A stretch of DNA of 49,593 nucleotides, from the NCBI GenBank assembly GCA_017881795.1, contig JADGQM010000001.1, positions 1 to 49,593 of the forward strand. Reading direction: 5' to 3'. Positions 21 to 46,884 of the stretch are shown piece after piece. A program made the translations under genes and the position numbers. Each line of letters starts with the position of its first letter. Within the stretch, counting starts at the first letter, position 1. Under the pieces are notes generated by a model. The model was not told the DNA's origin and ran no database searches. It worked only from the letters and a program-made list of their open reading frames with translations. The DNA comes from Syntrophobacteraceae bacterium. GTDB taxonomy: Bacteria > Desulfobacterota > Syntrophobacteria > Syntrophobacterales > Syntrophobacteraceae.

Positions 21-76
21 CCCTCAATCCCTCAATCCCTCAATCCCTCAATTCCTCAATTCCTCAATTCCTCAAT
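21..76. repeat. Perfect tandem octamer array: CCCTCAAT x4 then TCCTCAAT x3. Degenerate copies continue to about 183.
   Basis: Direct reading gives CCCTCAAT units at 21-28, 29-36, 37-44 and 45-52, and TCCTCAAT units at 53-60, 61-68 and 69-76. Related ccctcaaa, cctctcaat and ttcgcaattcaac lie between 126 and 183. Confidence 0.95.
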
Positions 77-321
77 TCAACTTGGGTAAAAAACGTAATC
101 AGGCGTGCACGAATCGTAACTTTGATCCCTCAAAAACCTTCCTCTCAATCCATCTCCACCCTGAAAGCCTTCGCAATTCAACCACATAACAGATTGGAAC
201 GTTAGTTGCTTAGGGGGGATAGCGGAGGCCATAGTCAAAATTGGCTTCGCGCCTGGAACATTGTGGCGAAATGGCTTCCTGTGAGGTTGGCAAACATCCT
301 TTTCAAAACGGGAGAACGAAG

Positions 322-2712
322 ATGGGAAAGATCGGGAAATGCTTCCTTCCAACATTTCTTCTGCTGCTTATGACGGCATCGTCCGGCTTGGCTCAGGTTC
401 GCACCGGAGTATCAGCGGAAGGGATCCTGGTCGGACGTATTGCGCACATAGAGGGCCAATTGCTGCGGTACGTGCCGGAAGCAAAGGACTGGGTGGCCAC
501 GGTCAAGGATGTGCCCTTCGGATTGAATGACTCCCTCTATTCTGAGGCAACGGCCAAAGCGGAATTGATCATGCCCAATAATACCTGGATGAGGATCGGG
601 GGCAGCACCCAGATCCAGTTGATCACGCTCCGGATGGACGTAACCGAGGTTGACGTAGCTTCCGGCATGGCACGGCTCTACAACCGGAGCAGCAGCGGTG
701 TGATCAAGGCGACAAGCCCTTTCGGTTATGTCGTGGCGCCCGCGGGAACGATATTTGATCTTTATGTGGGAGATCAGTCTCTTGAAGTAATTTCCCTCAA
801 AGGGAAAGTCGATTTCATCCTTAATCGCGACCAAAGTCGTTACGAAGTGACCGCCGGCTCTTCTTCCATCGTTTCCGACGGCCAGCAGGTGACGTCAGGG
901 CAGGGCAATGTTGACGCTGAGTGGGATGACTGGAATGCGGAACGAGACCGGCTCTGGATGCAAAGGACGGAAGTAAAAGGAGACTCGGTGCGATACCTCC
1001 CATCCAATTTGCGTGATGATTCCTACCTGCTCGATGAAAATGGCAGATGGGAACGGGTCTATTACGAGGGAGGATATCGTTATTTTTGGCGTCCCGTCAA
1101 TGTCGCGGTCGGATGGGCGCCCTATACGATGGGGAGATGGACGGTGTATTACGGGGACAATTGCTGGGTTCCCTATGAACCTTTCGGATACGTGACCCAT
1201 CACTATGGAAACTGGGTGTTCGTGGGCAGCTCCAATTGCTGGTACTGGGCGCCGCCGGTGGTGAGCGTCGGCGTGAGTGTCGGCCCGTTCCTTCCCATTC
1301 CCTTCGGGTGGTATCCGGGAAGAGTGGGTTGGATTTACTCGGGACTCAATGTCGGCTGGGTTCCACTGGCTCCCTCCGAACCCTATTACGGTCACCGTCA
1401 GTGGGGGCCGAGCACAGTGATTGTCAATAACATTAACATCAACACAATCAACATCAACCGATACCAATATATCAACCGCGCAGTGGTGATTAACCAAAAC
1501 AATTTCTACAATGTGAATAACTACCAGAACGTGAGAATCACTAATATCAATAAGAATATCATCATCAACAACTATCGAGCAGCTCCGGTCATCAACAACA
1601 CGATTATTCGTAATTTCAACGATATCCACCAGAGATACGACTTCACCAATATTAAAGCGGAACATAAGCCTCATGATATCGTGATGAGCAGAATTGCGCA
1701 AAATGACAAGCTTGCCCAACAAGCAAGAGGCCTGGACGCCCATGTCATTGAGCGGAATGCGGCCGCCATCCAGGCTGCTAAACCGGTGCAGGACATAAGG
1801 ATAGAAGCGCCTAAGATAACCGACAAACTCGTCCGAGGGAATGAAGCGAGCAGACCTCAGACCGACCTGCAGCTCCAGCAAAGAGAATTGAAAGCGAGAT
1901 CCAAGCCCCCTTCCGAAATCGTGACCGGGCGAGGCCCGTCGCTCGAGGGTCAGCCAGGCCTGGACAGCCCACGCGTTCAGCCTGGCGAAGCCGCTCGGAA
2001 CCGAATGCCAACCGGTCAAGGACAGCGAGTGAGACCACTGAAACCCGGACAGGAAATGGTGACGCCGGGACCCAAACTGCTTTCACCATCGGGCCAAGAC
2101 GGCCAAACAGTCAGGCCCCCCAGGCCCGGCAGTGAGGTGCAACCCGTCGAACCGGGACAGGTAAAAACGGTTCCCGGTGATACGCGGAGGGTCAGGCCAC
2201 CCGCACCACAGCAAGCTATCCGGCCACCCCAGGGCGGACCGGTTGGGCAGCCGGCTGAGCAAGGTCAGGGGGTGAAACGATCGAGACCCGGGGGAGACTT
2301 TCGACCCGGGGAAGCGGGACAGGCGCAATCACCGCTCAACGACACTCGTAGAACACGGCCCCCAGCACTCCAGCAAGACCTTCGGCAGCCTCAGGGAGGG
2401 CTCCCCAGGCAACAAGGTAATCAAGATCAGCACGTCAAACCACAAATGCCGCCCAAGGATGTCAAGAGCGGTGAGCCAGGACAGATCAGATCTCCAAACA
2501 ATACGCAGCAGAGGCTGCAGCCCCCTGGAGGAGGACAAGAGCCGAGGCAACAGGCGCCACGACAAATAAAGCCGCCCGCGGAAGAGCGCAAGCATTCGGT
2601 GACTCCCCAGGAATCGTCGCGCCCAGGTGGCGTCGGCGAACCGCCCGGGCCCCGGCAGCAGATGAATGAACAGCGGTCCCCTGTTCCTAGGCAACACAGC
2701 GCCGGGCTATAG
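322..2712 (+). CDS. Secreted FecR-domain protein with a W/Y/G-rich region, an Asn/Ile-rich segment and a long Pro/Gln/Gly/Arg-rich repetitive tail
   Basis: The ATG at 322 follows GGGAG (311-315), and MGKIGKCFLPTFLLLLMTASSGLAQV looks like a Sec signal peptide. The FecR-like block is GRIAHIEGQLLRY...SLKGKVDF. The remainder is low complexity. The ORF-track start at 241 is probably an upstream extension. Confidence 0.75.
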   Translation: MGKIGKCFLPTFLLLLMTASSGLAQVRTGVSAEGILVGRIAHIEGQLLRYVPEAKDWVATVKDVPFGLNDSLYSEATAKAELIMPNNTWMRIGGSTQIQLITLRMDVTEVDVASGMARLYNRSSSGVIKATSPFGYVVAPAGTIFDLYVGDQSLEVISLKGKVDFILNRDQSRYEVTAGSSSIVSDGQQVTSGQGNVDAEWDDWNAERDRLWMQRTEVKGDSVRYLPSNLRDDSYLLDENGRWERVYYEGGYRYFWRPVNVAVGWAPYTMGRWTVYYGDNCWVPYEPFGYVTHHYGNWVFVGSSNCWYWAPPVVSVGVSVGPFLPIPFGWYPGRVGWIYSGLNVGWVPLAPSEPYYGHRQWGPSTVIVNNININTININRYQYINRAVVINQNNFYNVNNYQNVRITNINKNIIINNYRAAPVINNTIIRNFNDIHQRYDFTNIKAEHKPHDIVMSRIAQNDKLAQQARGLDAHVIERNAAAIQAAKPVQDIRIEAPKITDKLVRGNEASRPQTDLQLQQRELKARSKPPSEIVTGRGPSLEGQPGLDSPRVQPGEAARNRMPTGQGQRVRPLKPGQEMVTPGPKLLSPSGQDGQTVRPPRPGSEVQPVEPGQVKTVPGDTRRVRPPAPQQAIRPPQGGPVGQPAEQGQGVKRSRPGGDFRPGEAGQAQSPLNDTRRTRPPALQQDLRQPQGGLPRQQGNQDQHVKPQMPPKDVKSGEPGQIRSPNNTQQRLQPPGGGQEPRQQAPRQIKPPAEERKHSVTPQESSRPGGVGEPPGPRQQMNEQRSPVPRQHSAGL

Positions 2713-2820
2713 CCACCCCGTGAGAAAACTCTTCCTTGTCCCCGATGGATCAAGTATAAAAAGGAGAATTGGTTCAATAACAGTGGGTGGTGTAGGTCAG
2801 GGAAATAAGAGGGCGGAATT

Positions 2821-5631: not shown

Positions 5632-5633
5632 CC

Positions 5634-5661
5634 GGCTTTCATCCTCGTACGAGGCAAAGCC
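5634..5661. terminator. Imperfect hairpin between convergent genes; possible bidirectional terminator
   Basis: In ggctttcatcctcgtacgaggcaaagcc, ggcttt pairs with aaagcc and cctcg with cgagg. There is no clear U-tract. Confidence 0.35.
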
Positions 5662-5674
5662 TCACTGCAGTCAT

Positions 5675-6802: not shown

Positions 6803-7029
6803 AGTCCCGAAAACTCTCCCTTGCGCAATCCTTATAATCGATCCTCAAACATTCTCCCATCATGAATCGACTGTTTTAGACCAGGGAAAAACCTTCCGAA
6901 TATACAAAGGAAGAGTTTTTCGACGGCTTGGTCTATACTTCCCGGAGATGCCCAATCGGTGGTAGGAGTAACCACGATGCGGTGTAGGCAAAGGGGACGA
7001 GGTCGCAAAACCAATTGTGGAGGTGGAAT

Positions 7030-7494: not shown

Positions 7495-7520
7495 AAATTT
7501 TCTTCCCCGCTTTGGAGCCG

Positions 7521-8885: not shown

Positions 8886-9259
8886 ATAAAGTGAAATCCT
8901 TATCATTTCTGAATCCGAACCGGGCGGCTTCACCGGGTCACGAGACCCTGCTCGATGCCGGCCTAAAACCGCACGCCCGAACCCCGCCGCAAAAGGCGCA
9001 GCAACAGGCGGCCCAAACCAGAAACGCCGTTAAAGGTTGAAACTATCAGACTGCAGGAGGAAAAGCGCACCGCGAAGGCGCTTGCGACTGCAGCACATAT
9101 GAGACGACTGGCCTGAAACATCGTCGCCAACCAAACGTGCTGCCGCAAAAGAAAAGCTTGCTTATGGGGTCAGTGATCGATGATGCCTAATGGCAGGGAA
9201 AAACGAAAGCGATCCGTAAAACCATTCCTTACCAAGGTCTCAAACAACTTTAAGAAAGT

Positions 9260-11475: not shown

Positions 11476-11697
11476 TAATTCTCCTTTTTCTTCCTCACAA
11501 CGTTTCTTAAAGGTCGCAAGACCATCGCATGGACCTCACAGAAAGGTCACTGAGCACTTTGCATTCTGTGCACTGAAGGCTGTCGTTTGGACCTTTCACG
11601 TTTTCGTTTATACCCAAGATAAGGAGGTTCATTGACATCCCTGTCACCTAAGGAACTGTCCAAAAACCACCTGCTCTCATTTCAGCCTTTTTTCAAA

Positions 11698-11755
11698 CCA
11701 CGAAGGACACGAAGAGCACGAAGGAATCACTTCGTGCTCTTCGTGTCCTTCGTGG
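11698..11755. repeat. Perfect palindromic hairpin (25-bp stem, 8-nt loop) made of three CACGAAG units and their complements
   Basis: The left arm ccacgaaggacacgaagagcacgaa (11698-11722) is the exact reverse complement of 11731-11755. The loop is ggaatcac. Confidence 0.95.
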
Positions 11756-11953
11756 TAAAAGAATGCCCTTTATTTTTGGACGGCCCCTAACTGGACCCTC
11801 CTCAACATCATCCTCCGGGCCTTCTTTTGCCTTATTTCAGAGACTCGGCCCAAGATGATAACAAAAGTCTCCGCTTCCGACAATGGACCACATGTCATGA
11901 CAAAGCCCATCCCATTCAAAATAATAGATTTCCGTTTCTTCTCTTTTGGCTGG

Positions 11954-12325
11954 CTACATCTGATCGTTCTTCTTATTTTTTCTTGATCGTGTTTTCTTCC
12001 CTGCCATATCTCCCTCACCAGCCTCTGATTCGGCAGCCGCTGCCTTTTCTCGCTTTCTCTGTTCCATGAATTGGATCAGCTTTTCAGGCAAGCCCCTTTT
12101 CTTCGGCGCTTCTTCAGCCGGTGGTTTTGACGATGCTCTGAGAACGGTGACGGTTTCGCCACCGATACCCCAATTGTCGGTTTCCACCTCATCGATCACG
12201 ACAACCGTTGTTTGTGGATTCTTCCCGAGGACATCGGCCAAAAGCTGCGTGACACCCTGGATGAGCAGGGCTTTCTGATCTGAGGTGGCACCCTCTTTGG
12301 TGATTTTGATATTCACATACGGCAT
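11954..12325 (-). CDS. 4-oxalocrotonate tautomerase family protein with a charged Lys/Glu/Ala-rich C-terminal extension of about 55 aa
   Basis: MPYVNIKITKEGAT..QK..LI.GVT.LL...LGKNP.TT.VVIDEV.TDNWGIGGE is the 4-OT fold signature with Pro1. The tail ...KKRGLPEKLIQFMEQRKREKAAAAESE...KKTRSRKNKKNDQM is additional. Confidence 0.8.
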   Translation of the reverse strand: MPYVNIKITKEGATSDQKALLIQGVTQLLADVLGKNPQTTVVVIDEVETDNWGIGGETVTVLRASSKPPAEEAPKKRGLPEKLIQFMEQRKREKAAAAESEAGEGDMAGKKTRSRKNKKNDQM

Positions 12326-14316: not shown

Positions 14317-14628
14317 TCAGAGCGTTTTGGAGGGGTCTCTATCTTCCCGCCCATGCCAGACCCTAACAATGAGGATGTAATCGTCGGTAACTGTGTAGCG
14401 CATCCAGTAACCGGCCTGCCCGAAGGGGATAAATAAATCTCTCAGGTGGGGCCGGTCAATGTCCAACACGGGGCGACCAATCTTGGGAAGCTCCTGTAGT
14501 TTGTGTGCGGCTTCACGAATCCGTTTCGCTGCCCGTTGAGCCGCATCCGGGTTATGAACGCGGATAAAATCACGTAGGCGGGCTAAATCCGACAGGGCTT
14601 CGGGAAGCCATTTCAGGGAACGGGACAC
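14317..14628 (-). CDS. RelE/ParE family toxin
   Basis: ParE-like sequence: LPEALSDLARLRDFI...A.RAAKRI.EA...L...P.IGRP... and the C-terminal ILIVRVWHGRE. The GTG at 14628 lies 4 nt after GGGGGAGGG and overlaps the antitoxin's 3' end by 16 nt. Confidence 0.8.
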   Translation of the reverse strand: MSRSLKWLPEALSDLARLRDFIRVHNPDAAQRAAKRIREAAHKLQELPKIGRPVLDIDRPHLRDLFIPFGQAGYWMRYTVTDDYILIVRVWHGREDRDPSKTL

Positions 14629-14885
14629 TTGCCCTCCCCCTCTGTTCCCCATGTCTCGAGCCACGCCTCAACCGCTTCATGGCTGACCGCCTCGCCGGTT
14701 GCTTCAAAGCGGGCCCAGCGTTCCAAGGTATCCTGCCGGATGTGTTCAGCTTCCTCTTCGCGCTCAAGAAATTGCTGGATAGCTTCCTTCATCAGCCAAT
14801 GCGGTGATCGTCGTCGGGCTTCGCCCAGAACTTTCAGTCGGTTGTAGGTTTTCTCGTCCAGTTTTACGGCTTTGCTTGTCATCAA
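14613..14885 (-). CDS. Ribbon-helix-helix (CopG/ParD-like) antitoxin
   Basis: The N-terminus KAVKLDEKTYNRLKVLGEARRRSPHWLMKEAIQQFLEREE is an RHH pattern. The gene sits immediately upstream of the ParE-like gene and overlaps it. Confidence 0.8.
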   Translation of the reverse strand: MMTSKAVKLDEKTYNRLKVLGEARRRSPHWLMKEAIQQFLEREEEAEHIRQDTLERWARFEATGEAVSHEAVEAWLETWGTEGEGKCPVP

Positions 14886-14906
14886 TCACCCCTGTGAGTA
14901 GTGCTA

Positions 14907-15142: not shown

Positions 15143-15496
15143 TGGTGGAGGCGGCGGGAGTTGAACCCGCGTCCGAAAGCATTCCACTCAGGTTCCTACA
15201 TGCTTATCCCGTATTTTGATTTTCACCCTGAAAGGCTCCCACGGGCAGGATCCCGCCAGGATTAGCCCGCTTAATTTCATCCCCGGTCGCACAGGCAACT
15301 GACCAGGAACCATCTCACTGAGTCGACGCCCCGTTAGCCCCGTGAGAAGTGACTAAAAGGACGGTAGCCGCCTATGCGGCTACGGCGTACGCGTAATCGT
15401 CTGCGTTTGTCTTTAGACCCTGTCCGTTTTACGAGCAGGCAGGACCTCGGCATGCAACCTAAGCTTCTTTACCCCCGTCGAACCCGTTTCGCCCCC
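15143..15496 (-). ncRNA. ssrA: tmRNA (SsrA)
   Basis: The minus strand begins GGGGGCGAAACGGGTTCGACGGGGG and ends GGACGCGGGTTCAACTCCCGCCGCCTCCACCA. The tag reading frame GCA GAC GAT TAC GCG TAC GCC GTA GCC GCA TAG (15404-15372) encodes ADDYAYAVAA. Confidence 0.97.
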
Positions 15497-26793: not shown

Positions 26794-27312
26794 CTAACTT
26801 CCTGTTTTCTCTGCGACCTCTGCGTCTCTGCGGTGAGTACTTATGTCCCTCAAGAGCACCACCGCATAAGCCGCAACCCCTTCTTCCCTTCCCGTGAATC
26901 CCAGTCGCTCCGTGGTTGTCGCTTTCACGTTAATACATGACTGCAAGATGTTGGTGGCGTTAGAGATATTTTCCACCATTTGATGAATGTGAGGGGCAAG
27001 CCGGGGTTTTTGCAGCACGAGAGTGGTGTCGATATTCTCGACTTCAAAGCCACGTTCCCTGACCAGAACCACCGTTCGCCGGAGAAGGACGAGGCTGGAT
27101 ATGCCTTTATAAGAGGAGTCCGAATCCGGGAAATGACGCCCGATATCCCCCAGTGCAGCGGCCCCCAGAAGCGCGTCACAGATCGCATGAAGGAGTACAT
27201 CCGCATCGGAATGCCCGAGCAGCCCATGCGTATGGGGAATCTCCACCCCGCCCAAAACCAGGGGACGATTTTCGTCAAAGGCATGAACATCGCACCCGAA
27301 ACCTATGCGCAT
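26794..27312 (-). CDS. ispF: 2-C-methyl-D-erythritol 2,4-cyclodiphosphate synthase
   Basis: [12 protein letters not shown]......[41 protein letters not shown] is the IspF signature. Confidence 0.96.
26809..26832. repeat. Three tandem CTCTGCG units (8-9 nt period) inside the 3' end of ispF
   Basis: ctctgcg occurs at 26809-15, 26818-24 and 26826-32. On the coding strand the units are translated as HRRDAEVAE in the IspF C-terminal tail. Confidence 0.9.
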
Positions 27313-35660: not shown

Positions 35661-38195
35661 CTATTGCTTGATTGGTTTATCTCGATCCTCAGCCGGTCTT
35701 ATGTCCCAGCGGAGCCCATCGGAAGTCGCCTGGATGGCCCCCTGAAAGTCTGTCCGGAAGGCTGGGATACCGCGTTTTGCGCACTCTGCCAGCGCGGTGG
35801 CTGATGGGAACCCAAACAAATTATCATAGCCGCACGAAAAAATAACGGTCTGTGGATGAAGGTATTCAAAGAGAAAGGGAGGATTCGACTGCGCACTACC
35901 GTGATGAGGGGAAACCAGGAGCAATTGCTCAGGAGGCGTCTGGCCTTGAAATAGAGCAAGTCCTATTGATTGATCAATATCCCCTGGGAGAATGAGCGCA
36001 GTGCGACCAAAGTTGATTTGAAGCATCAGCGACACATTGTTCAGATTCCGTCCATCCCATTTGGTTTGAACATAGGATGGGGCTGGGTGAATAACTCTGA
36101 CCTCGCAACCGTCAATGGTGTGCCGGCCGAAAATCTCCCCAAGCTGCTTGACTGGAATCTTCCGTTTGGCGGCAATAATGGCAAGTTCGCTCGGAACCTG
36201 AGAGTTTTCCGTCAACCCGCTTTCCCAAAGACAGCCGACATCAAAATGAGAGAGCACAAAGCGCAGCCCATTCCGATGATCGGGGTGGTCGTGTGAAAGC
36301 ACCACGTAATCGAGTTTGCGAATTCCTGAATACCATAGAAAAGGCGCGAGGACAGCCCGTCCGATATCAAATGCTTCATTGTAGAACCCTCCCCCATCGA
36401 CCAACATGGTCTTCCCTCCTGGAAATTGCACCAGCGTCGAGCTCCCCTGACCCACATCAAGCGCCATGACACGCAGCGTCCCAAGTTCATCCGAGCGAGG
36501 AAGAGCCTGCTGGATGACGCTTATGGTCGAGCCGAAAAATACCAGCACGGTGATGCCAACGGCCTTGCTTCGCCAGCGCCATGGGCAGAGCAGGAGAGTC
36601 AGCCCGGCATAGAACAACACCAGGAAGAGGACGGAGACGGACCCCACCCAGAAGTAGCTCCACGAGAGGTGACTGAACCATTTCAGCAGAGCTTGAAAGA
36701 CCTCCAAGAAGAAACCTCCAAGCTTTAAGAGCGGTAGGGCAAGCTTGTCGCTGAATGCAAAAATTCCCAGACTGGCCAAGCCGGGCGGCAGAACAAAAAA
36801 CCCGGTGAGCGGCACGAGCACAATGTTAGCAAGGAAGCCTGCCAGAGAGATCCCCTGGAAATAATAGGCAGTGAGGGGAAGCACCATGATGTTTACGGCG
36901 ATGGACAGCCAAAAGGCTTCCTCAAAGGGTGCAATCAGCTTTCCCGGCAATTTGTTCCGAGTGAATGCCGGATGGACGGAGGTGAGGTGAAAGCGTTCCA
37001 ACTTTGGGTAGAGACTGAAGATGGCAAACATACAGACGAAGGTTAGCTGAAACGAAATCTGCCAGAGGCTGTTGGGATCAGCAAGAAGAATGACCAGGGC
37101 CGATGCTGCGAGAACCGAAAAGGGGTCGGCGGCAATATACCAGTATGCTGCGCCGAAACAAATGGTGAGCATCACCATGGAACGCCAGATGGGAGGGACC
37201 GAAAAGCCGGCGATGAGGGCATAGGTCGCAGCGGCCAAAAGCGCCGGCCACACGGCGATGCGCTGGTCATCGATGCGGCGCAGCACAAAAGGGCACAGCA
37301 TCCGCAAGAGTCGCTTCACGATCCAGAACACCAGGAGGGCGACCAGTCCCATGTGCAGACCGGAGATGGAAAGGAGGTGAGTGACTCCCGCTCGGTTAAG
37401 GTCTTCCCGCCATGAATCGGAAAGGAGATTTTGGTAACCGAGAAGCAGTCCTGCGTAAAATGCTGCCACATCAGGAGGAAGATTGCCCTGGATCCAGAGC
37501 AACGCCCGTTGTCGGAAACGCTCCAGACCGCTTCTTGCCTTCTGCAAAACGGACCAGGGATAAGAGGTGGAGGCGCCAGCCAATTTCACCATAAAGCGGT
37601 CGTCAGCGACATATGCCCGAGCGTTGATTCCACGCTCCGCCTGGCTGCGAACGTAATCGTAGCCGCCGGGGTTGTTGAAATTATGAAGGCGCTTGAGGCT
37701 CAAACGCAGGGCGACCATGTCACCGGGAAACCATTCTGTGGGCACACTGCGAGTCTTGCCGAGAGTAAGAAGAACACCCCCTGCGACGGGGATGCTCCGA
37801 CCTTCAACCACCGCCGCATGGAGCTGCACAGAGAGTCGGATCTTGTCCGGATAAAAATCCAGAGGCGAGCTCACTTCTCCAAGGAAGAGAGTCTGGGAAG
37901 AGTCAATAAAGGGCTCAAGACTCGGCGGTGCGGGCAGATCGGGTCGCGCCAGTCGTCCCGCAAGAAAACCAAGGGCGCAAAACACCACCAGAGGGACCAC
38001 GGGAGATCGCCACGAAATGCTTTGAGAAAACAGTCCGAGCAGGAACAAGGCCAGCAGTAAAAAGACGCCTGCCGTTGCCCAGACCATTGGAACAGCCCAG
38101 GGGCAGCAATGTTCAGCTGCAATCCCGGTCACGAAGGCGATGACCAGCCATGAAAAAGGACGTGGCCAGCGGAAATAAAGGACCGAGTGTCTCAT
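35661..38195 (-). CDS. comEC: DNA internalization-related competence protein ComEC/Rec2
   Basis: The N-terminal OB/DUF4131 region and the polytopic competence domain (THLLSISGLHMG) are followed by a C-terminal MBL domain (LDVGQG....V......M.VDGG, LSHDH.DH). Confidence 0.92.
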   Translation of the reverse strand: MRHSVLYFRWPRPFSWLVIAFVTGIAAEHCCPWAVPMVWATAGVFLLLALFLLGLFSQSISWRSPVVPLVVFCALGFLAGRLARPDLPAPPSLEPFIDSSQTLFLGEVSSPLDFYPDKIRLSVQLHAAVVEGRSIPVAGGVLLTLGKTRSVPTEWFPGDMVALRLSLKRLHNFNNPGGYDYVRSQAERGINARAYVADDRFMVKLAGASTSYPWSVLQKARSGLERFRQRALLWIQGNLPPDVAAFYAGLLLGYQNLLSDSWREDLNRAGVTHLLSISGLHMGLVALLVFWIVKRLLRMLCPFVLRRIDDQRIAVWPALLAAATYALIAGFSVPPIWRSMVMLTICFGAAYWYIAADPFSVLAASALVILLADPNSLWQISFQLTFVCMFAIFSLYPKLERFHLTSVHPAFTRNKLPGKLIAPFEEAFWLSIAVNIMVLPLTAYYFQGISLAGFLANIVLVPLTGFFVLPPGLASLGIFAFSDKLALPLLKLGGFFLEVFQALLKWFSHLSWSYFWVGSVSVLFLVLFYAGLTLLLCPWRWRSKAVGITVLVFFGSTISVIQQALPRSDELGTLRVMALDVGQGSSTLVQFPGGKTMLVDGGGFYNEAFDIGRAVLAPFLWYSGIRKLDYVVLSHDHPDHRNGLRFVLSHFDVGCLWESGLTENSQVPSELAIIAAKRKIPVKQLGEIFGRHTIDGCEVRVIHPAPSYVQTKWDGRNLNNVSLMLQINFGRTALILPGDIDQSIGLALFQGQTPPEQLLLVSPHHGSAQSNPPFLFEYLHPQTVIFSCGYDNLFGFPSATALAECAKRGIPAFRTDFQGAIQATSDGLRWDIRPAEDRDKPIKQ

Positions 38196-38207
38196 CAGCC
38201 AGGTAGA

Positions 38208-38257
38208 GTGGTCAGTAGTAATGGCCAGTGGTCAGTGATCAGTTATCAGTGATCACC
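38208..38257. repeat. Heptamer array NNNCAGT
   Basis: The units are ggccagt, ggtcagt, gatcagt, tatcagt and gatcacc. CAGT recurs at 38226, 38233, 38240 and 38247 with an exact 7-nt period, and an extra gtggtcagt lies at 38208-16. Confidence 0.9.
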
Positions 38258-38316
38258 AAAAGAGCTAAGGTGACCTGAACGTGGGGCGGGCTTTCCAGCC
38301 TGCCAGGTGCGTCAGC

Positions 38317-38337
38317 GGCCAGTGCCCAGTGCTCAGT
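38317..38337. repeat. Heptamer array: ggccagt, gcccagt, gctcagt
   Basis: Three consecutive 7-nt units end in CAGT. An imperfect hairpin ggcgggct/agcctgcc lies just upstream (38285-38304). Confidence 0.9.
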
Positions 38338-38402
38338 ATTGGAGCCACCATGACCTTTGATGTCCGCTTCCACTGTTGAATGGGTTAGCTCGACGAGGAC
38401 CA

Positions 38403-39653: not shown

Positions 39654-39677
39654 TTCTCACCTGCCACATATATAAGT

Positions 39678-39698
39678 GCTGAGTCCTGAGTGCCGAGT
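39678..39698. repeat. Heptamer array: gctgagt, cctgagt, gccgagt
   Basis: Three consecutive 7-nt units end in GAGT, 25 nt upstream of the murA start. Confidence 0.9.
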
Positions 39699-39749
39699 TC
39701 TGGCCCAGGAGTCAACAGCCAGAGGTTGAACCTAACATCCCCAAAACCT

Positions 39750-39777
39750 ATCAACCATCAACCATCAACCACGAACC
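39750..39777. repeat. Heptamer array ATCAACC x3 plus ACGAACC, overlapping the prmC stop
   Basis: Units lie at 39750-56, 57-63, 64-70 and 71-77. On the minus strand this reads GGTTGAT x3, giving TGA in all three frames (39767-65, 39760-58, 39753-51). Confidence 0.95.
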
Positions 39778-40634
39778 TTTTGAATGTGCAGGATGCGCAG
39801 GATTCCGGAATAATCCCGAATGAATTCAAAGCGACCCATCAAGGAATCCCCACTAAGTTCTGCGCGCATAATTTCTGCCTGTCCGGCCCCAATCTCCAAC
39901 AACAGCGATCCGCCCTCTTTCAGGTAAGCCGACGCGTCGCCAATAATCCGCCGAATTACCGCAAGCCCCTGGGGGCCTGCCAGGAGGGCGGCTTTTGGTT
40001 CGTATCTTATTATTTCCGGAGCAAGTTGAGGTAATTCTTTTTCACCCACATACGGTGGGTTGCTAATGATCACATCGAATGGTGGGCTGGAAGAAGAAAA
40101 GCCGCGAAACAAATCGGTCGCGACAAAAGCGATGCGATCATCGACACCATGACGAGAGGCGTTACGCCTGGCTACCAGAAGGGCCGCGCAGGATGTGTCG
40201 GTGGCAATCACCCTAACAGCACGGCATTCGTGGGTGAGGGCAATGGCGATGGCTCCCGAGCCCGTGCCCAGATCAAGCACTCGTTTCGAGGAGTCTTTTA
40301 CGAGCTCGAGCGCCTTTTCGACGAGCAATTCCGTTTCCGGCCGCGGAATCAGGACGGCCGGAGTGACCTCAAGTTCCAAAGACCAGAATTCCTGTTTTCC
40401 GGTTATATATGGGGTGGGTTCGCGTGCCGCTCGGCGACGGATTGAATCCCGATATGCGGCCAATTCGTCGGGGGCGAGAGGACGATCGAAATTGAGGTAG
40501 AGTTGGATACGTTCCAGTCCAAGCACATGAGCAAGCAGCACTTCAGCACTGGCGCGCGGTTGGTCAATCTCCTTAAGGCCAAAGTACTCCGTGGTCCACT
40601 GGAGCACCTTGAGAACCGTCCATCTCTCTTCCAT
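39765..40634 (-). CDS. prmC: Peptide chain release factor N5-glutamine methyltransferase
   Basis: The SAM motif (VLDLGTGSGAIA) and NPPY (IISNPPYV) are present, and the gene lies directly downstream of prfA. Confidence 0.93.
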   Translation of the reverse strand: MEERWTVLKVLQWTTEYFGLKEIDQPRASAEVLLAHVLGLERIQLYLNFDRPLAPDELAAYRDSIRRRAAREPTPYITGKQEFWSLELEVTPAVLIPRPETELLVEKALELVKDSSKRVLDLGTGSGAIAIALTHECRAVRVIATDTSCAALLVARRNASRHGVDDRIAFVATDLFRGFSSSSPPFDVIISNPPYVGEKELPQLAPEIIRYEPKAALLAGPQGLAVIRRIIGDASAYLKEGGSLLLEIGAGQAEIMRAELSGDSLMGRFEFIRDYSGILRILHIQKVRG

Positions 40635-40650
40635 TCCTCAATTCCGCAAT
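40635..40650. repeat. Two octamers, TCCTCAAT and TCCGCAAT, abutting the prmC start codon
   Basis: The first unit is identical to the 53-76 unit. The second matches the tccgcaat reading of the 46728-46750 array. On the minus strand the sequence reads ATTGCGGAATTGAGGA-ATG. Confidence 0.85.
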
Positions 40651-40701
40651 ACGAGTGGCTTTAACCAGAAGGCTTCTGATTGTTCGGCGGTGGATGGACG
40701 A

Positions 40702-41778
40702 CTAGCCCAGCCGCAAACCCTTCAAGGCTTCTGCCTGAAAATGCGTGGTCAAAGGGTCGATAATATCGTCGAGAGTGCCGCCGTCAAGAATGGCATCCAA
40801 TTTATAGAGGGTGAGGTTGATCCGGTGGTCGGAAACTCGGTTTTGGGGGAAATTGTACGTGCGGATGCGCTCGCTCCGGTCTCCGGTGCCGACCTGACTC
40901 TTTCGTTCCTGAGCGATTTTCGCCTCTTGCTCGCTTTGCATCTGATCCAGCAAGCGAGCGCGAAGCACCTTCAGAGCCTTGGCTTTGTTCTTGTGCTGTG
41001 ACTTTTCATCCTGGCAGATCACCACCAGCCCGCTAGGGACATGAGTGATGCGCACGGCGGAATCAGTGGTGTTCACGCTTTGTCCGCCTGGTCCGGAGGA
41101 CCGGAACACGTCCACACGCAGTTCGTTGGGATCGATGTAAACGTCCACCTCTTCGGCTTCGGGAAGAACGGCCACCGTCACGGCCGAGGTATGGATTCTC
41201 CCCTGGCTCTCTGTCACCGGCACGCGCTGGACCCGGTGCGCCCCCCGCTCGTATTTCAGCCGGCTGTAGGCTCCCTTGCCGTTAATCTCGGCGACGATTT
41301 CCTTTAAACCGCCGATGCCGGTCGGATGGGCATCCAAAATTTCGACCTTCCACCGACGAAGTTCAGCGTAGCGTGAATACATCCGGAAGAGGTCAGCGAC
41401 AAAAAGCGCCGCTTCCTCACCTCCTGTACCAGCCCGGATTTCAAGGATGACGCTTTTGTCGTCTTTGGGGTCCTTGGGAGCAAGCATGAGCTTGAGTTCT
41501 GTCTCGCATGCATCCAGTTCTTTCCGCTGCCGGGCGACCTCATGCTTGAAAAGCTCTCGCATTTCCGGATCATCTTCCGCCTCAAGCAGTTCCTGATTTT
41601 CCTGGACTTGCCGGCTTAACCTCTTGAATTGCCGGTAGGTCTCGACAACGGGGGAGATTTCGGCATGCTCTCTGGTAACCTTCTGGTATTCCTTTTGATT
41701 AGCCAGAATTTCTGCGTTGCTGAGCTCTTCCTCAAGCTGGTGATATCTTTCCTCAACACTTTTCAGACGATTGAACAT
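40702..41778 (-). CDS. prfA: Peptide chain release factor 1
   Basis: The GGQ motif ([19 protein letters not shown]) and an RF1-type PxT tripeptide (PVT) are present. Size is 358 aa. Confidence 0.97.
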
Positions 41779-41864
41779 AACCGTATCGGCCTGCCCTCAA
41801 TTGCACAGGGCTACACAAAAAAATAATAAATTCTGTGGAATGGGGATTGTCCAGAGTTCCGACG

Positions 41865-42080
41865 CTAAGCCTCTTTGGTCTGGAATTTTTCGTATTTCCT
41901 GCGAAATCTCTCAATGCGACCAGCAGAATCCACCAACTTTTGTTTGCCCGTGTAAAAGGGATGGCAGTTGGAACAAATTTCAACCCGGATCTCTTGCTTT
42001 GTTGATCCAGTCGGAATTTCGTTGCCACAGGCGCACCGGATAACGGTCTGACGATACGCGGGATGGATATTCTCTTTCAT
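41865..42080 (-). CDS. rpmE: 50S ribosomal protein L31
   Basis: MKENIHP.Y......C.CG.......T.......[13 protein letters not shown] matches L31. AGGAGG lies upstream of the ATG at 42080. The ORF-track start at 42137 is an extension. Confidence 0.93.
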
Positions 42081-42243
42081 TGGTTCTGTTCCTCCTTCTT
42101 TTCCTTGAGCCATTTTGAATTTGTTATTATACACCACCTTCCATTTTGCTCAAGTATTTTTAGAAGGAAATGTAGGCTCAGGACACGGCGCCGGGCTCCC
42201 AGGGCCTTGTTTTCGTACCCCTGAACTGCAAACTCTTTCTGGT

Positions 42244-43572
42244 CTAGCGGTTCATGGAGGCGAGAAAATCCGCGTTGCCTTTAGTGCCCTGCATTTTGTC
42301 GAGCAAAAATTCCATGGCATCGATCGGATTCAGCGGAGAAAGCAGTTTTCTAAGAATCCAGATGCGGTTGAGATCATCTGATGGAATCAACAACTCCTCT
42401 TTACGCGTGCCGGACTTGTTAATATCAATAGCCGGAAAGATGCGGCGATCGGCAAGCTTGCGGTCAAGCACAATTTCCATATTGCCAGTGCCCTTGAATT
42501 CCTCAAAGATTACCTCATCCATGCGACTGCCCGTGTCAATCAACGCCGTGGCAATAATGGTCAGGCTGCCGCCCTGTTCGACGTTGCGCGCAGCGCCAAA
42601 AAAGCGTTTCGGGCGGTGCAGTGCATTCGAGTCCAAGCCGCCGGAGAGGATCTTCCCACTCGGAGGCACCACCGAGTTATAGGCTCGGGCGAGGCGCGTG
42701 ATGCTGTCGAGGAGGATGATTACATCCCGTTTATGTTCCACCAGCCGTTTGGCTTTTTCGCTTACCATCTCCGCCACCTGCACGTGACGCTGGGGCGGCT
42801 CGTCAAAGGTGGAGCTCACTACTTCGGCCCGCACGTTCCGTTGCATATCGGTGACTTCTTCGGGTCTCTCATCGATCAGCAAAACAATGAGGTAAGCCTC
42901 CTTATGGTTAACCGAGATGGCATTGGCAATATTTTGAAGCAGCATGGTCTTGCCGGTGCGAGGCTGAGCGACGATCAGGCCGCGCTGGCCGAAACCGATA
43001 GGGGTCAAGAGATCCATCACCCTGGTGGAAAGATTATCGGCAATGCTTTCCAGCCTGACGCGTCGATCCGGATAGAGGGGAGTAAGGTTGTCAAAGAGTA
43101 TTTTATCTCGAGCTACCTCAGGATCTTCATAATTAACCGCTTCCACCTTTAAGAGCGCGAAGTAGCGTTCATTGTCTTTGGGTGGGCGAATCTGCCCGGA
43201 GATGCTGTCCCCGGTTCGCAGACTGAAGCGCCGGATCTGTGAGGGCGAGACGTATATGTCATCCGGACCCGGGAGATAGTTATAGTTCTGGCTTCGGAGA
43301 AAGCCGAATCCGTCAGGCAGGATCTCCAGGACTCCTTCTCCATAAATCAGACCGCTCATTTCCGCCTGAGCCTGGAGCAGAGAGAAGATCAGTTCCTGCT
43401 TTCGCATCGCACTGGCTCCTTCAATGTTGAGGGCCTTGGCGATGGTCATCAACTCCCTGATGTTCTTACTTTTCAACTCCACAAGGTTCATTTCGTTGCG
43501 GGGTTGTTCAGCATTTTCCAGGTCTTTGGCTTGCTTCTGAGTGTCCTGGGTGTTTTGCGTAGCTTGAGGCAT
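42244..43572 (-). CDS. rho: Transcription termination factor Rho
   Basis: The N-terminal domain [20 protein letters not shown], the RNA-binding domain, the Walker A motif ([10 protein letters not shown]) and Q/R loops are all present. The start is ambiguous: GTG 43611, ATG 43587, ATG 43572 (GGAG upstream) or ATG 43491. Confidence 0.95.
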
Positions 43573-43839
43573 ATCCGTCCACTCCATGGATAGTAAATTG
43601 TCAATCGTCACGAACCTGTTCTTCGGGCATGATGCGTCTCACACTGGCAAGATGATTTTGAGGAAGCGGCATTTCCGGGGAATGGGTGCTAGTCTCAATA
43701 ATTTTTGTCTGCCAGACGTTCTTCCTGGTATTTTGTCGAGGTTACTCTCGGAGCAGAGCTCACCTACTCCGACGAGGCAAGTTCAACTCTAAAGAAGTTT
43801 TTTCGTTTGTCAACACATTTATCTCATTAAAATACTCTA

Positions 43840-44613
43840 CTAGAAACCTATGCGAGTCCAGATGCTGGGCTTCTTAGCCCCTTCGGCCAGACGCTGCTCG
43901 GACGTCGCCACCATCTTTTTAATCTCCTCTTCATAGCCCAGGTCCCTGACCGCTTGAGGGAAATTGCGATTGATCAATTCCAGCCGATCTTTCGCCGCGT
44001 AAAATTCCCCCATAATGTAATAGAGTCGCCCGACATGAAACTCATGGGCAACTATGCGCTTTTGACATTCAAAGAACTGTTTCTTCGCTTTCAGAGTGTA
44101 CTCGGACTGCGGATAAGCCTGAATCAAGCGCTGAAAAGATTCCATCGCCAACCGCGTTTCTTCCTGGTCCCGGTCAACGGTGGTAAAAGATAAGAAATGG
44201 CACATCCCAATTTGATAGAGCACATAGGGGATCACTTCATTTCGCGGATGGAGTCGCGCGAACTCCTCGTACGCTATGGCCGCATCAGCATAATCCTTAT
44301 TGTAAAAGTGGGCATCGCCAAGCTTGAGTTCCGCCAGAATTGCATACTTGCTGTAAGGATAGCGCTCTTTCAGTTGCTGAAACGCTTTGATCGCATCTTC
44401 ATAATCTTTTTTCTGCATCTTCTGCGTGCCTTCGATTACAAGCTGCTCGGCACTTTTCTCAAGGGCCGAGGAGGAACCCTTGCCGAAGGTGTCTCCGAAG
44501 TAAAATTTTACCAAATAGGAATCACAGCCGCAGATTCCCAGCATGAAGATGGGCAGAAGTAAAACAACAAAATGCCGAAAAAGGTTTACCAACGGTCTAG
44601 AAGCAAAGCGCAT
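43840..44613 (-). CDS. bamD: Outer membrane protein assembly factor BamD (TPR lipoprotein)
   Basis: A signal peptide with a lipobox-like ICGC is followed by the TPR-rich YfiO pattern (YPYSKYA..A.L.LGDA.Y....Y..A...YE.F..L.P.). Confidence 0.85.
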   Translation of the reverse strand: MRFASRPLVNLFRHFVVLLLPIFMLGICGCDSYLVKFYFGDTFGKGSSSALEKSAEQLVIEGTQKMQKKDYEDAIKAFQQLKERYPYSKYAILAELKLGDAHFYNKDYADAAIAYEEFARLHPRNEVIPYVLYQIGMCHFLSFTTVDRDQEETRLAMESFQRLIQAYPQSEYTLKAKKQFFECQKRIVAHEFHVGRLYYIMGEFYAAKDRLELINRNFPQAVRDLGYEEEIKKMVATSEQRLAEGAKKPSIWTRIGF

Positions 44614-44702
44614 AATGGTTCCTGTTATTGCAAGGGGGAGCTGGAATCTCCTATGTTCCTTCGAGGAGACTCAAGCAGAACCATCTCAGGTCATGCCGGT
44701 TC

Positions 44703-45035
44703 TTAGCCAACTGCTTTGTCGACGGCAGCAGTGATCTGGGACTTGGCTACGGCGCCGGTGATTTGTTCGCTTACACTCCCATTCTTGAAAAGGATCAGGG
44801 TCGGGATCGCGCGAATGCCGTAACGGGAAGGCGTCTTGGGATTGTCATCGACGTTGCACTTTGCCACTTTGAGCTTGCCTGCATAGTCTCCGGACAGCTC
44901 ATCAATGACGGGAGCGATCGCTCTGCAGGGCCCGCACCACGGCGCCCAAAAATCCACCAGAACGGGTACTTCCGACTGCAGAACTTCCTGCTCAAACGTG
45001 CTGTCGCTAATTTCAATGATGTTTTTTCCTGCCAT
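44703..45035 (-). CDS. trxA: Thioredoxin
   Basis: VLVDFWAPWCGPCR and AIPTLILFKNG are present. Size is 110 aa. Confidence 0.97.
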   Translation of the reverse strand: MAGKNIIEISDSTFEQEVLQSEVPVLVDFWAPWCGPCRAIAPVIDELSGDYAGKLKVAKCNVDDNPKTPSRYGIRAIPTLILFKNGSVSEQITGAVAKSQITAAVDKAVG

Positions 45036-45057
45036 CAGAACCGCTCCTCTCTTCGCT

Positions 45058-45069
45058 ACACACGTGTGT
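45058..45069. promoter_or_regulatory. Perfect 12-bp palindrome ACACACGTGTGT in the trxA/radA divergent region
   Basis: Direct reading. It lies 23 nt upstream of the trxA ATG. Its function is unknown. Confidence 0.4.
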
Positions 45070-45221
45070 TTTTCAAGTATCCTGGGAACTTGCCGTTTGC
45101 TCTGAAAACCCGTTTCAGGATATATACAATCGGCCTGATTTTGTCAATCAAACATCAATTCCCTGCAACCTGGAACTCCAACTGCGAGGGAAAAACGGAA
45201 ATAGAACTGTGGAGGAAACTC

Positions 45222-46583
45222 ATGTCGAATAAGAAAACCATCTTCCGGTGCCAGCAATGTGGTTACGTAAGCCCAAAGTGGCTGGGGCGCTGTCCGGACT
45301 GTCAGAGCTGGCAAGGCCTCGTGGAAGAAATGGCGATAAAGAAATCTTCCCGAGGGGCGAGCTTATCATCGAGGGCCCAACCGCTCGCGCTTGCCGATAT
45401 TCCTTTTGAATCGGAAGACCGCCTCCAGAGTGGCATCGGGGAATGGGACCGGGTGCTCGGCGGCGGGCTCATGCCCGGGTCTATCGTTTTGCTGGCGGGC
45501 GATCCCGGGATCGGCAAGTCTACCCTGCTCCTGCAGGCCATGGCACAACTCGCTCAAACTCGACGGGTGCTCTACGTATCCGGTGAAGAAAGCCCGCAGC
45601 AGCTTAAGCTGAGGGCTCTGCGGCTGAAAATCGAAGCCCCGAACCTCTATATTTTTTCCGAGAATTCGCTCGAAGCTCTGCTGGAAGTCATCGAAGAGAA
45701 GCCCCCGGAGATTGTCGCGGTGGACTCCATCCAAACCTTCCACTCCCGACAGCTCGATCTTGCTCCCGGTTCCATCACCCAGGTCCGGGAATGTACGGCA
45801 CGGCTGATGCGGGAAGCCAAGGAAAGAAATATCGGAATCTTTCTCATCGGCCATGTCACCAAAGAAGGCTCTATTGCCGGGCCCCGCGCCCTCGAACATC
45901 TTGTGGACACGGTGATTTACCTCGAAGGCGATCGCACGCATACATTTCGCCTTCTGCGCGCGGTGAAAAACCGTTATGGCTCAACCAATGAGGTAGGAGT
46001 TTTCGAAATGAAGGAACTGGGACTGGAAGAGGTCCCCAATCCTTCGCAGCTCTTGCTTGCGGAACGCCCCAAAGGGGTGGCCGGTTCCGTCGTGGCCTGC
46101 TCCGTGGAAGGGACGCGCCCGCTTCTAGTGGAGCTTCAAGCCCTGGTGAGCACCACCGGCTGGATGCAGCCGCGACGGACGAGCATGGGGGTGGACAGCA
46201 ATCGGCTGTCACTCCTCCTGGCCGTCCTGGAAAAGAAGCTGGGGTTTAACTTTGCCCAGCATGATGTCTTCGTGAATGTTGCCGGGGGAGTTCGCCTGCT
46301 CGAACCGGCGGTCGATCTCGCCATGACCACAGCTCTGGTAAGCACTTACCTGGATCGGCCGGTGCCGCCGGACCTGGTGATCTGGGGAGAGGTGGGCCTG
46401 GCTGGTGAAGTCCGCGGTGTGGGACACACCGCGATCCGGGCCATGGAAGCAAGCAAAATGGGGTTCTCCAAGTATCTCATGCCGAAGAGCAATGCCGATC
46501 GCTTGTCCCAGGAACTGGCGGGAGACTGCATAGGGGTGCGGTCGTTGCAGGAAGTGCTGGAGATTGTATTCAATAAAGGCTGA
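45222..46583 (+). CDS. radA: DNA repair protein RadA/Sms
   Basis: The zinc ribbon (FRCQQCGYVSPKWLGRCPDCQSW), Walker A (GDPGIGKSTLLLQ), KNRYG motif and Lon-like C-domain are present. The ATG at 45222 follows GGAGGA. The ORF-track start at 44628 runs antisense through trxA. Confidence 0.96.
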   Translation: MSNKKTIFRCQQCGYVSPKWLGRCPDCQSWQGLVEEMAIKKSSRGASLSSRAQPLALADIPFESEDRLQSGIGEWDRVLGGGLMPGSIVLLAGDPGIGKSTLLLQAMAQLAQTRRVLYVSGEESPQQLKLRALRLKIEAPNLYIFSENSLEALLEVIEEKPPEIVAVDSIQTFHSRQLDLAPGSITQVRECTARLMREAKERNIGIFLIGHVTKEGSIAGPRALEHLVDTVIYLEGDRTHTFRLLRAVKNRYGSTNEVGVFEMKELGLEEVPNPSQLLLAERPKGVAGSVVACSVEGTRPLLVELQALVSTTGWMQPRRTSMGVDSNRLSLLLAVLEKKLGFNFAQHDVFVNVAGGVRLLEPAVDLAMTTALVSTYLDRPVPPDLVIWGEVGLAGEVRGVGHTAIRAMEASKMGFSKYLMPKSNADRLSQELAGDCIGVRSLQEVLEIVFNKG

Positions 46584-46625
46584 GAAACTGCCTGAAAATA
46601 TCCTTGTGATTGGTGTTTACCAGGC

Positions 46626-46647
46626 GAGCAGGCTCGCAAGCCTGCTC
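46626..46647. terminator. Hairpin with a 9-bp stem and CGCA tetraloop downstream of radA
   Basis: gagcaggct-cgca-agcctgctc. There is no U-tract on either strand. Confidence 0.35.
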
Positions 46648-46699
46648 TACAACCAAGCCCGCCTTCCGGCAACCCAGGTTCTTGAAGCTGCCACCTGAT

Positions 46700-46755
46700 G
46701 TCCGCAACCCCACATCCAAAATCCCACATCCGCAATCCGCAATCCGCAATCTCTC
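46700..46755. repeat. Heptamer array built on ATCCGCA
   Basis: The units are accccac, atccaaa, atcccac, atccgca x3 and atctctc, with an exact 7-nt period from 46707 to 46755. A tgtccgca precedes them. Confidence 0.93.
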
Positions 46756-46819
46756 AAAACCGGTCCACTAAGTCACACGAAGATTAACGAAGACACACGA
46801 ACTGAATTCACTGTCCTCC

Positions 46820-46884
46820 ATTCGCAATCCGACATCCGCACATCCGCACATCCGAAATCCGACATCCGACATCCGCAATCACCT
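46820..46884. repeat. 7/8-mer array built on ATCCGNC, abutting the mtnA stop codon
   Basis: The units are attcgca, atccgac, atccgcac x2, atccgaa, atccgac x2, atccgca and atcacct. Confidence 0.93.

Follow-up and report, generated by a model that had tools for sequence, protein, structure and literature searches.

Among simple repeats, heptanucleotide arrays are to our knowledge the one class found in excess time and again in free-living prokaryotes, and we know of no work in more than 30 years that has established either the cause of the 7-nt step or a function. Long simple sequence repeats (LSSRs) dominated by heptanucleotides were described in the intergenic DNA of many prokaryotes by Mrazek, Guo and Shah (2007; we follow the summaries in PMC4679880 and PMC4692102). 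Huang and Mrazek (2014; PMC4060949, Tables 2-3) surveyed a "7n3" repeat class whose delta-proteobacterial median is given there as "normal". Here we analysed a stretch of 49,593 nucleotides (49.6 kb, hereafter the window) from a Syntrophobacteraceae bacterium (GenBank assembly GCA_017881795.1, contig JADGQM010000001.1), in which arrays of short tandem repeats recur. These arrays fit the published class of heptanucleotide LSSRs and short tandemly repeated repetitive sequences (STRRs): tandem units of 5-11 nt are in excess over composition, heptanucleotides predominate and units that are not a multiple of three stand in non-coding DNA. With other prokaryotic LSSRs (5-11-nt units) they share head-to-tail 7-nt and fewer 8-nt arrays beyond what composition predicts, an intergenic position, many units per genome, a patchy phylogeny, the lack of a tie to virulence or contingency genes, and slippage as the proposed origin. 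We found no report of heptamer arrays in Syntrophobacterales or Desulfacinum in the searchable literature; given this and the "normal" 7n3 median, enrichment in this lineage has not been singled out before. Judging from sequence comparisons, the arrays are probably (we would put it at about 0.6) non-coding LSSRs, with 7-nt and some 8-nt units, that are remodelled in place by slippage or unequal exchange.

Repeats were called with Tandem Repeats Finder (TRF) on the window and each array was then checked by eye in the sequence; 100 dinucleotide-preserving shuffles of the window served as null model. We observed 12 arrays with a period of 6-9 nt, whereas the shuffles held 0.71 on average and never more than 3, so that the arrays of the window exceed chance. 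The top TRF score was 97 in the window and at most 45 in the shuffles. The arrays lie at essentially the positions where a first-pass annotation, made from the sequence alone, had placed them, with units head to tail at periods of 7 and 8 nt and in 2.7-7.4 copies; in the window and in its relatives, the period spectrum peaks at 7, followed by 8. At least eight different units occur within 49.6 kb, and the density is roughly one array per 5-6 kb. To call the repeats perfect was an overstatement, since this is true of three blocks only (21-76, 39750-70 and 46728-48), all others being degenerate with 72-90% matches. For the single units formerly listed (6824-48, 35631-49) chance is a sufficient source, since coding DNA has exact copies of TCCTCAAT and near-matches throughout, and isolated units were rejected as family members because of this chance frequency. 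The observation itself is real, if somewhat overstated.

The arrays are concentrated between genes and at gene 3' ends, as first described. According to the gene map, 12.9% of the window is intergenic, and eight of the nine arrays of 7-8 nt fall there (P about 6e-7 by our own binomial estimate); the ninth lies within the last 40 nt of ispF, whose 3' tail it forms. They are found in the co-directional comEC-murA, murA-prmC and prmC-prfA spacers, in the convergent radA-mtnA spacer, upstream of a DUF6600 gene and at the ispF 3' end, and the divergent (promoter) spacers of the window contain none. The contacts with stop codons of ispF, prmC and mtnA that had been noticed at the outset are real: the prmC stop codon (39765-67) lies within the ATCAACC array, the mtnA stop (46884-86) directly contacts the array at 46820-84, and IspF carries, beyond a Pfam domain ending at residue 154 of 172, a tail of 18 residues that is partly array-encoded. 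Within the first 17 nt of the window, a frame-2 TAA at 14-16 stands two bases ahead of the octamer array. It may be the end of a plus-strand gene, and the array would then abut another stop codon. The neighbours of the arrays are housekeeping genes (ispF, prfA, prmC, murA, comEC, radA, mtnA) and not contingency genes. They do not fit the simple sequence repeats of phase variation, which switch frame or spacing from within the 5' coding region or promoter of surface or virulence genes: the arrays stand at housekeeping 3' ends and spacers, and the spacers with divergent promoters are free of them.

Chance matches or assembly artefacts have a negligible probability as an explanation and are effectively refuted for the strong arrays. 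Individually near noise are the arrays at 26809-32, 38317-37 and 39675-702, with TRF scores of 31-42, to be compared with the shuffle maximum, and the doublet at 40635-50. The three CTCTGCG copies at 26809-32 are present as annotated but not in strict tandem, being separated by 2 nt and 1 nt, and this array by itself is hardly distinct from noise. The doublet at 40635-50 matches in its units the arrays at 53-76 and 46728-50, but it has only two units, with one mismatch, and received no TRF call; by our estimate, chance alone would yield about 0.7 doublets of this kind in the intergenic DNA, and only the match of its two units to other arrays, in equal orientation, lends it credence. Against chance stand the total number of arrays and their strong concentration in intergenic DNA. 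As to artefacts, the independent Logan contig L082 (sample SRR13451248) has exactly the sequence of window 39742-40722, which takes in the doublet and reaches the edge of the ATCAACC array, where the contig terminates; the sequence is thus not an assembly artefact. Like arrays also occur in Desulfacinum isolate genomes. A second Logan contig of the same sample (L001) covers no array; it ends about 40 nt from the doublet, overlaps L082 by 30 nt and differs from the window by 3 synonymous single-nucleotide polymorphisms, which suggests that SRR13451248 holds more than one strain. These two short contigs were the only close strains that exact-protein look-ups returned, and the nearest relatives in a metagenome scan reached only 61-66% PrmC identity.

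The nearest genomes are Syntrophobacteraceae metagenome-assembled genomes and Desulfacinum (PrfA 74-76%, Rho 88-90% identity), which places the host in the Syntrophobacterales (Thermodesulfobacteriota) and, together with the synteny with Desulfacinum, confirms that the host is not a cyanobacterium. Genes in GC-rich relatives were placed by tblastn anchoring. The gene order gatB-mtnA-radA...rho-prfA-prmC-murA-comEC is kept in both Desulfacinum loci compared, L004 (Desulfacinum sp.) and L005 (D. infernum). Per 10 kb, there are 3.8-4.8 arrays of 7-8 nt in Desulfacinum and 2.9-5.6 in L006 and L007, two further loci of the Syntrophobacterales. Almost none are present in L008 and in the peat Syntrophobacteraceae (L002, L003, L083-L091), which are closer to the window than Desulfacinum; the remaining loci fetched with prfA have a background of 0.25. 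The Desulfacinum arrays occupy the same spacers as those of the window (following mtnA and prfA, ahead of murA, and ahead of or inside comEC), with other units and copy numbers. The cores at these orthologous spacers look alike by eye (GGAT after mtnA, ACTG/ACTC before comEC, ATTG octamers after prfA). Sharing of 6-mers between the window and Desulfacinum showed no excess at orthologous over non-orthologous spacers (11 of 24 and 15 of 24 permutations), and since this test is not significant, homology of the arrays is not claimed. Outside the Syntrophobacterales, 7-nt arrays at 1.4-3.3 per 10 kb were observed in L029, L030, L036 and L080 (Acidobacteriota), L022 and L063 (Bacillota), L069 (Myxococcales) and L010, often directly beside prfA and with units of the lineage's own, such as GTCGTTA/TAGTCGT in Acidobacteriota.

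The two Desulfacinum genomes are about 94% identical and differ mainly at the arrays, where the alignment breaks; nine of the 16 indels of at least 4 nt lie in or near arrays, and six of these nine are whole-unit changes (7, 7, 8, 28, 28 and 32 nt). Within arrays, neighbouring units are more alike than distant ones (4/2000 permutations). Variant blocks are seen, as in the 4+3 units at 21-76, and so are higher-order periods, of 14 nt at 46701-51 and of 21 nt at L004 2804-66, (CCTTACG CCTTACG ACTGACG)n. The similarity of neighbours, the 14- and 21-nt periods and the indels in multiples of a unit point to amplification in place by slippage. The early proposal of slipped-strand hypervariable loci is supported by proxy, through these two genomes, no close strain of the window having been found.

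On the simplest reading, which the comparisons bear out for origin and turnover, arrays arise in place and are constantly remodelled by slipped-strand mispairing or unequal exchange, units duplicating beside themselves, at times as blocks of two or three. Growth would halt at selected sequence such as start codons, stop codons and promoters; growth up to such sequence would explain the filled co-directional and convergent spacers, the stop codons that arrays abut or supply, and the tail of IspF. Maintenance of an array would need no sequence-specific function, and its main effect would be to provide spacer or untranslated-region (UTR) sequence of variable length and largely without structure. 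The limited repertoire of units (GGAT, ACTG/ACTC) may represent seeds that slip well or are tolerated. Abundance is limited to certain lineages.

Several points weigh against slippage as the whole explanation. Length variation appears between the Desulfacinum genomes; for the window's own arrays no close strain was found. For the step of 7-8 nt, the polymerase footprint put forward by Mrazek is only a hypothesis. Unit sharing between distant arrays, noticed early on, is real: with the Desulfacinum loci included, 20 array pairs lie within one mismatch where 5.1 are expected, a number that none of 500 shuffles reached. Heptads phased on GGAT number 8 in the 1.88 Mb of DNA fetched, against 0-2 for scrambled cores, and one 8-mer family occurs at three window loci in a single orientation. 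Pure slippage from random seeds predicts neither the one-mismatch pairs, nor the GGAT excess, nor the recurrence of the 8-mer. Array units are also slightly less self-complementary than letter-shuffled ones (-5.6 versus -6.8 kcal/mol, Wilcoxon P=0.0035), which could come from selection or from the mechanism. Unit relatedness, GGAT excess, the recurring 8-mer and low self-complementarity would be compatible with selection or with some bias in how arrays are seeded. Finally, the strongest plus-strand 80-nt tracts of C over G in the window are arrays (1-80, 46691-770 and 46815-894); that the three strongest arrays are also the most rut-like tracts hints at a function.

On the minus strand, which is the sense strand for most neighbours, the units form two groups, one containing GGAT (TGCGGAT, GTCGGAT, GAGGGATT, ATTGAGGA) and one made of ACTG or ACTC followed by three variable bases. 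A single orientation rule was considered and dropped: in the window, the strand that is G-rich or reads ACTG is the minus strand for all arrays, but Desulfacinum arrays occur in both orientations. As most genes are on the minus strand, which is also the one rich in G, and the Desulfacinum arrays lie both ways, neither a replication nor a transcription rule is established. The arrays and other features of the window are collected in Table 1.

Table 1. Repeat arrays, hairpins and selected genes of the window (TRF, Tandem Repeats Finder; ORF, open reading frame; MFE, minimum free energy)
Position	Feature and units	TRF	Context
18-76	Octamer array, 4 x CCCTCAAT then 3 x TCCTCAAT (also written AATCCCTC x4, AATTCCTC x3); minus strand GAGGGATT/GAGGAATT	period 8, 7.4 copies, 98% matches, score 97	165 nt upstream of DUF6600 gene 241-2712 (+)
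26809-26832	Three CTCTGCG copies	score 36	ispF 3' end (minus strand)
38205-38257	Degenerate heptads, plus strand NNNCAGT; sense (minus) TCACTGA TAACTGA TCACTGA CCACTGG ...	38226-55: period 7, 4.3 copies, score 46	murA-comEC spacer; ends about 10-14 nt upstream of comEC ATG at 38195; holds GATC-centred hairpin
38317-38337	GCCAGTG CCCAGTG CTCAGTA; sense ACTGAGC ACTGGGC ACTGGCC	score 31 (weak alone)	murA-comEC spacer; short hairpin between this array and 38205-57
39675-39702	3-4 heptads, plus strand NNNGAGT; sense ACTCGGC ACTCAGG ACTCAGC	period 7, score 35, or period 14, score 42	prmC-murA spacer
39745-39778	ATCAACC x3.7 (sense GGTTGAT)	score 45-47	3% G on plus strand
40635-40650	Octamer doublet TCCTCAAT TCCGCAAT; sense ATTGCGGA ATTGAGGA		abuts prmC ATG
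46626-46647 (+)	Nine-bp hairpin GAGCAGGCT-CGCA-AGCCTGCTC		between radA stop and arrays; context only
46700-46755	ATCCGCA / ATCCCAC / ATCCAAA heptamers; mtnA-sense TGCGGAT...	46701-51: period 14, score 65 (higher-order); period 7, score 49	radA-mtnA spacer
46766-46801	10-nt repeat x3.6, CACGAAGACA-like	score 37	between two heptamer arrays
46820-46884	Mixed heptamer/octamer ATCCGAC, ATCCGCAC, ATCCGAA; mtnA-sense GGAUGU-rich	46827-75: period 7, 6.7 copies, score 73	radA-mtnA spacer
11697-11756	Perfect 27-bp hairpin, RNA MFE -55.2 kcal/mol, z -14.5; each arm three tandem 9-mers, CACGAAGGA CACGAAGAG CACGAAGGA and reverse complement (inverted short-array pair)		about 200 nt downstream of tautomerase gene 11954-12325 (-)
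14317-14664 (-)	ParE-family toxin gene		adjoins tmRNA
15143-15496 (-)	tmRNA, tag peptide ADDYAYAVAA		
28224-28602 (-)	RNase P RNA, bacterial class A		
42244-43611 (-)	rho; Rho_N, Rho_RNA_bind and ATPase domains		about 44 residues before the first (Rho_N) Pfam match
44628-46583 (+)	radA ORF, 651 aa, TTG start		over-extended; homology and Pfam domains start near residue 195
44703-45035 (-)	Thioredoxin gene		opposite strand, within over-extended radA ORF

The first-pass annotation had described the plus strand of some arrays as C-rich, G-poor and rut-like. This holds for three arrays, which rank first to third among the C>G tracts of the window, with (C-G)/80 of 0.33-0.36 against a window mean of 0.013 (standard deviation 0.093), and which fold at about 0 kcal/mol. 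The octamer array at 18-76 leads (RNA MFE 0 kcal/mol), followed by 46700-55 (-2.9 kcal/mol, z -0.16) and 46820-84 (-1.2 kcal/mol, z +1.7), none of them folding better than shuffles. At 1-80, 46691-770 and 46815-894 the plus strand thus has more C than G, is poor in G and unstructured over about 60-80 nt or more, and carries spaced YC dimers, as is expected of rut-type sites.

The most concrete functional rival to slippage is that this C-rich, unstructured strand is a selected Rho-loading (rut) platform, directed against read-through at convergent junctions (radA into mtnA) and against antisense transcription across prfA-prmC-murA-comEC; we regard it as unlikely. With one YC per 7-nt unit, every second YC would be 14 nt apart with a 12-nt linker, which is within the range of 9-13 nt proposed for Rho primary binding sites (PMC6144790). 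The G-poor 195-nt tract 46690-46884, downstream of radA in its sense, holds 47 YC dimers and no intrinsic terminator, and rho itself (42244-43611) is encoded in the window. The hairpin at 46626-46647 lacks a T-run and is therefore not a canonical intrinsic terminator. In Desulfacinum, too, the radA-mtnA spacer is G-rich on the mtnA sense. However, the CAGT and GAGT arrays are not C-rich on either strand, and most arrays, at 20-35 nt, fall well short of the roughly 60-80 nt that Rho covers. Where arrays stand in spacers inside the operon, their rut-like strand is antisense, and the Desulfacinum arrays lie in both orientations relative to the flanking genes. C>G tracts are moreover common and are poor predictors of termination even in E. 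coli (PMC6144790).

Turned to the other strand, the arrays could be multivalent platforms for RNA- or single-stranded-DNA-binding proteins (CsrA-like on GGA/GGAUGU, or of the cold-shock or S1 type that has been suggested for TAACTGA repeats) or G-quadruplexes (G4s) that regulate the translation or stability of adjacent genes, which we hold to be improbable. In the mtnA sense, about 15 GGAU motifs, many of them GGAUGU, lie in the roughly 190 nt after the mtnA stop. GGAUGU matches the 3' half of the CsrA consensus obtained by systematic evolution of ligands by exponential enrichment. The GGAT core is, as said, over-represented among phased heptads. The position of the ACTGA-type array shortly upstream of the comEC start and of the octamer doublet against the prmC start is the one reported for TAACTGA repeats (PMC4679880). 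For the G4 version, the minus strand at 21-47 has a motif of four GGG tracts (GGGATTGAGGGATTGAGGGATTGAGGG), recalling the G4-forming GGGAATC repeats with their preference for four units (PMC4692102). This is the only array that fits at least four tracts of three or more G with short loops; the other GGAT arrays have GG. Against CsrA, its sites are usually in hairpin loops, and the folding of the array tracts does not surpass that of shuffles; among the genes of the window there is neither csrA nor csp nor another candidate binder. At least eight units in 49.6 kb and the complete turnover of units between genera are hard to square with one specific protein, and no regulatory effect of the comparable Xanthomonas repeats was found by Rehm et al. 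(PMC4692102).

These two ideas can be merged into one, in which the arrays are a selected, strand-oriented device whose structure-free C-rich strand is a modular, length-tunable Rho-loading insulator against transcription from convergent and antisense sides and whose GGAU strand is a protein-binding module of the 3' or 5' UTR. We consider this quite unlikely. If true, the GGAT and ACTG cores found from cyanobacteria and Xanthomonas to Syntrophobacterales would reflect recognition by a conserved machinery and not mutation bias.

Spread by a mobile or copy-paste process, with the arrays as footprints or targets of very small dispersed elements or as products of template switching, has in our opinion only a slim chance of being right. 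Small dispersed repeats of cyanobacteria are reportedly embedded in heptamer repeats, as Elhai is said to have described in 2008. Identical or near-identical units stand at distant loci in one orientation, inverted array pairs and the 27-bp hairpin of 9-mers at 11697-11756 indicate duplication with strand switching, and Desulfacinum arrays flank a CCCCCC-TTTGGAAAA-GGGGGG hairpin element in the mtnA-radA spacer and in the comEC frame. Yet the arrays of the window have no terminal inverted repeats, target-site duplications, or nearby transposase or RAYT-like gene, the Desulfacinum hairpin element is absent from the window, and local slippage explains the block structure and the unit-multiple indels more simply.

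In Desulfacinum, the conserved CCCCCC-TTTGGAAAA-GGGGGG hairpin was located between heptamer arrays at L004 2745-2790 and 14105-14135 and at L005 2900-2945 and 13950-13985, that is in the mtnA-radA spacer and again inside comEC, and this composite recalls small dispersed repeats in heptamer arrays. The comEC frame itself (L004 14100-14650, L005 13865-14140) runs free of stops through heptamer arrays and hairpins, which yields repeats of 7 aa, HSSLFTD for example. L004 exceeds L005 by 300 nt in this insert, a multiple of 3, and the arrays may be translated as a hypervariable loop of ComEC. Reverse-complement array pairs (e.g. AAGTCAG/TGACTTC), which potentially form long hairpins or bracket a gene, were observed in L030 (10694-10715 and 10765-10784), L006 (1508-1536 and 1576-1609) and L036 (9451-77 and 9963-93). 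In the window, the 10-mer array at 46766-46801 and the 9-mer hairpin at 11697-11756 have the word CACGAAG in common.

Annotation with Pfam, Rfam and ARAGORN presents the window as an unremarkable housekeeping region. Its protein genes comprise cysS, ispF, ispD, typA, a DEAD-box helicase, HU, a ParE toxin, a P-type ATPase, aroK, a PreP-type peptidase, comEC, murA, prmC, prfA, rho, bamD, thioredoxin, radA, mtnA and gatB, and the Pfam/Rfam annotation revealed no mobile-element, CRISPR or candidate repeat-binding gene.

By itself the finding overturns nothing and will not surprise specialists of bacterial repeats; the lineage and the conserved context, however, make a usable test bed. Syntrophobacterales and Desulfacinum add a lineage with dense arrays, a conserved housekeeping cluster and cultivable relatives for comparison, in which slippage, Rho loading and protein binding become testable in an anaerobe. 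The arrays also have practical effects: short-read assemblies break at them, stop codons shift, and spurious ORFs and C-terminal tails enter annotation.

We finally compared the arrays with individual repeat systems. That no ordinary feature type explains them, as first stated, is right for CRISPR arrays, repetitive extragenic palindromes (REP) and terminators, but the LSSR class does explain them. A CRISPR array was ruled out, the units being 7-8 nt and contiguous and not 23-47-nt repeats with unique spacers; so were REP palindromes and bacterial interspersed mosaic elements, which are dispersed imperfect palindromes of 20-40 nt, the arrays being direct repeats whose C-rich strands have an MFE of about 0 and no Rfam hits; intrinsic terminators and known RNA families do not fit. 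The likeness to the STRR heptamers of cyanobacteria, the classic case of the LSSR class, was well seen: both are tandem heptamers in non-coding DNA, with several unit families per genome and a CAGT/ACTG core. The units described by Mazel and colleagues in 1990 are said to be CCCCAGT (STRR1), TTGGTCA (STRR2) and CAACAGT (STRR3); if so, the window unit CCCAGTG (38324-30) is one mismatch away from CCCAGTC, a rotation of STRR1. None of these canonical units is repeated in the window, whose host is not a heterocystous cyanobacterium and where octamers are mixed in.

Geobacter metallireducens, also of the former "Deltaproteobacteria", has hepta- and octanucleotide tandems in intergenic and some intragenic positions (Aklujkar et al. 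2009, PMC2700814). Those elements form families of fixed copy number, with 4-5 units, 16-49 members and conserved flanks or paired sites (PMC2700814), whereas the arrays of the window vary in unit and copy number and are without conserved flanks. The TAACTGA repeats described from marine Beggiatoaceae and from some Cyanobacteria and Bacteroidetes (MacGregor 2015, PMC4679880) share their orientation and pre-start position with the array at 38205-57; the latter, however, is degenerate and has one exact TAACTGA, flanked by TCACTGA. One heptamer prevails in the Beggiatoaceae genome, where near-variants hardly ever form repeats (PMC4679880), whereas many units coexist in the window.

The GGGAATC repeats of Xanthomonas and the GGGGA(C/T)T repeats of Nostoc (Rehm et al. 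2015, PMC4692102) resemble units of the window, which contain GGAT or GGGAT. One window array has exactly four GGG tracts like these G-rich repeats, but its unit is the octamer GAGGGATT and several unrelated units co-occur in the window; most window units have only GG and are thus, unlike the Xanthomonas and Nostoc repeats, not G4-competent. In both cases no functional class of neighbouring genes stands out, divergent spacers are avoided, and the same spacers are filled in relatives with variation in length and sequence (PMC4692102).

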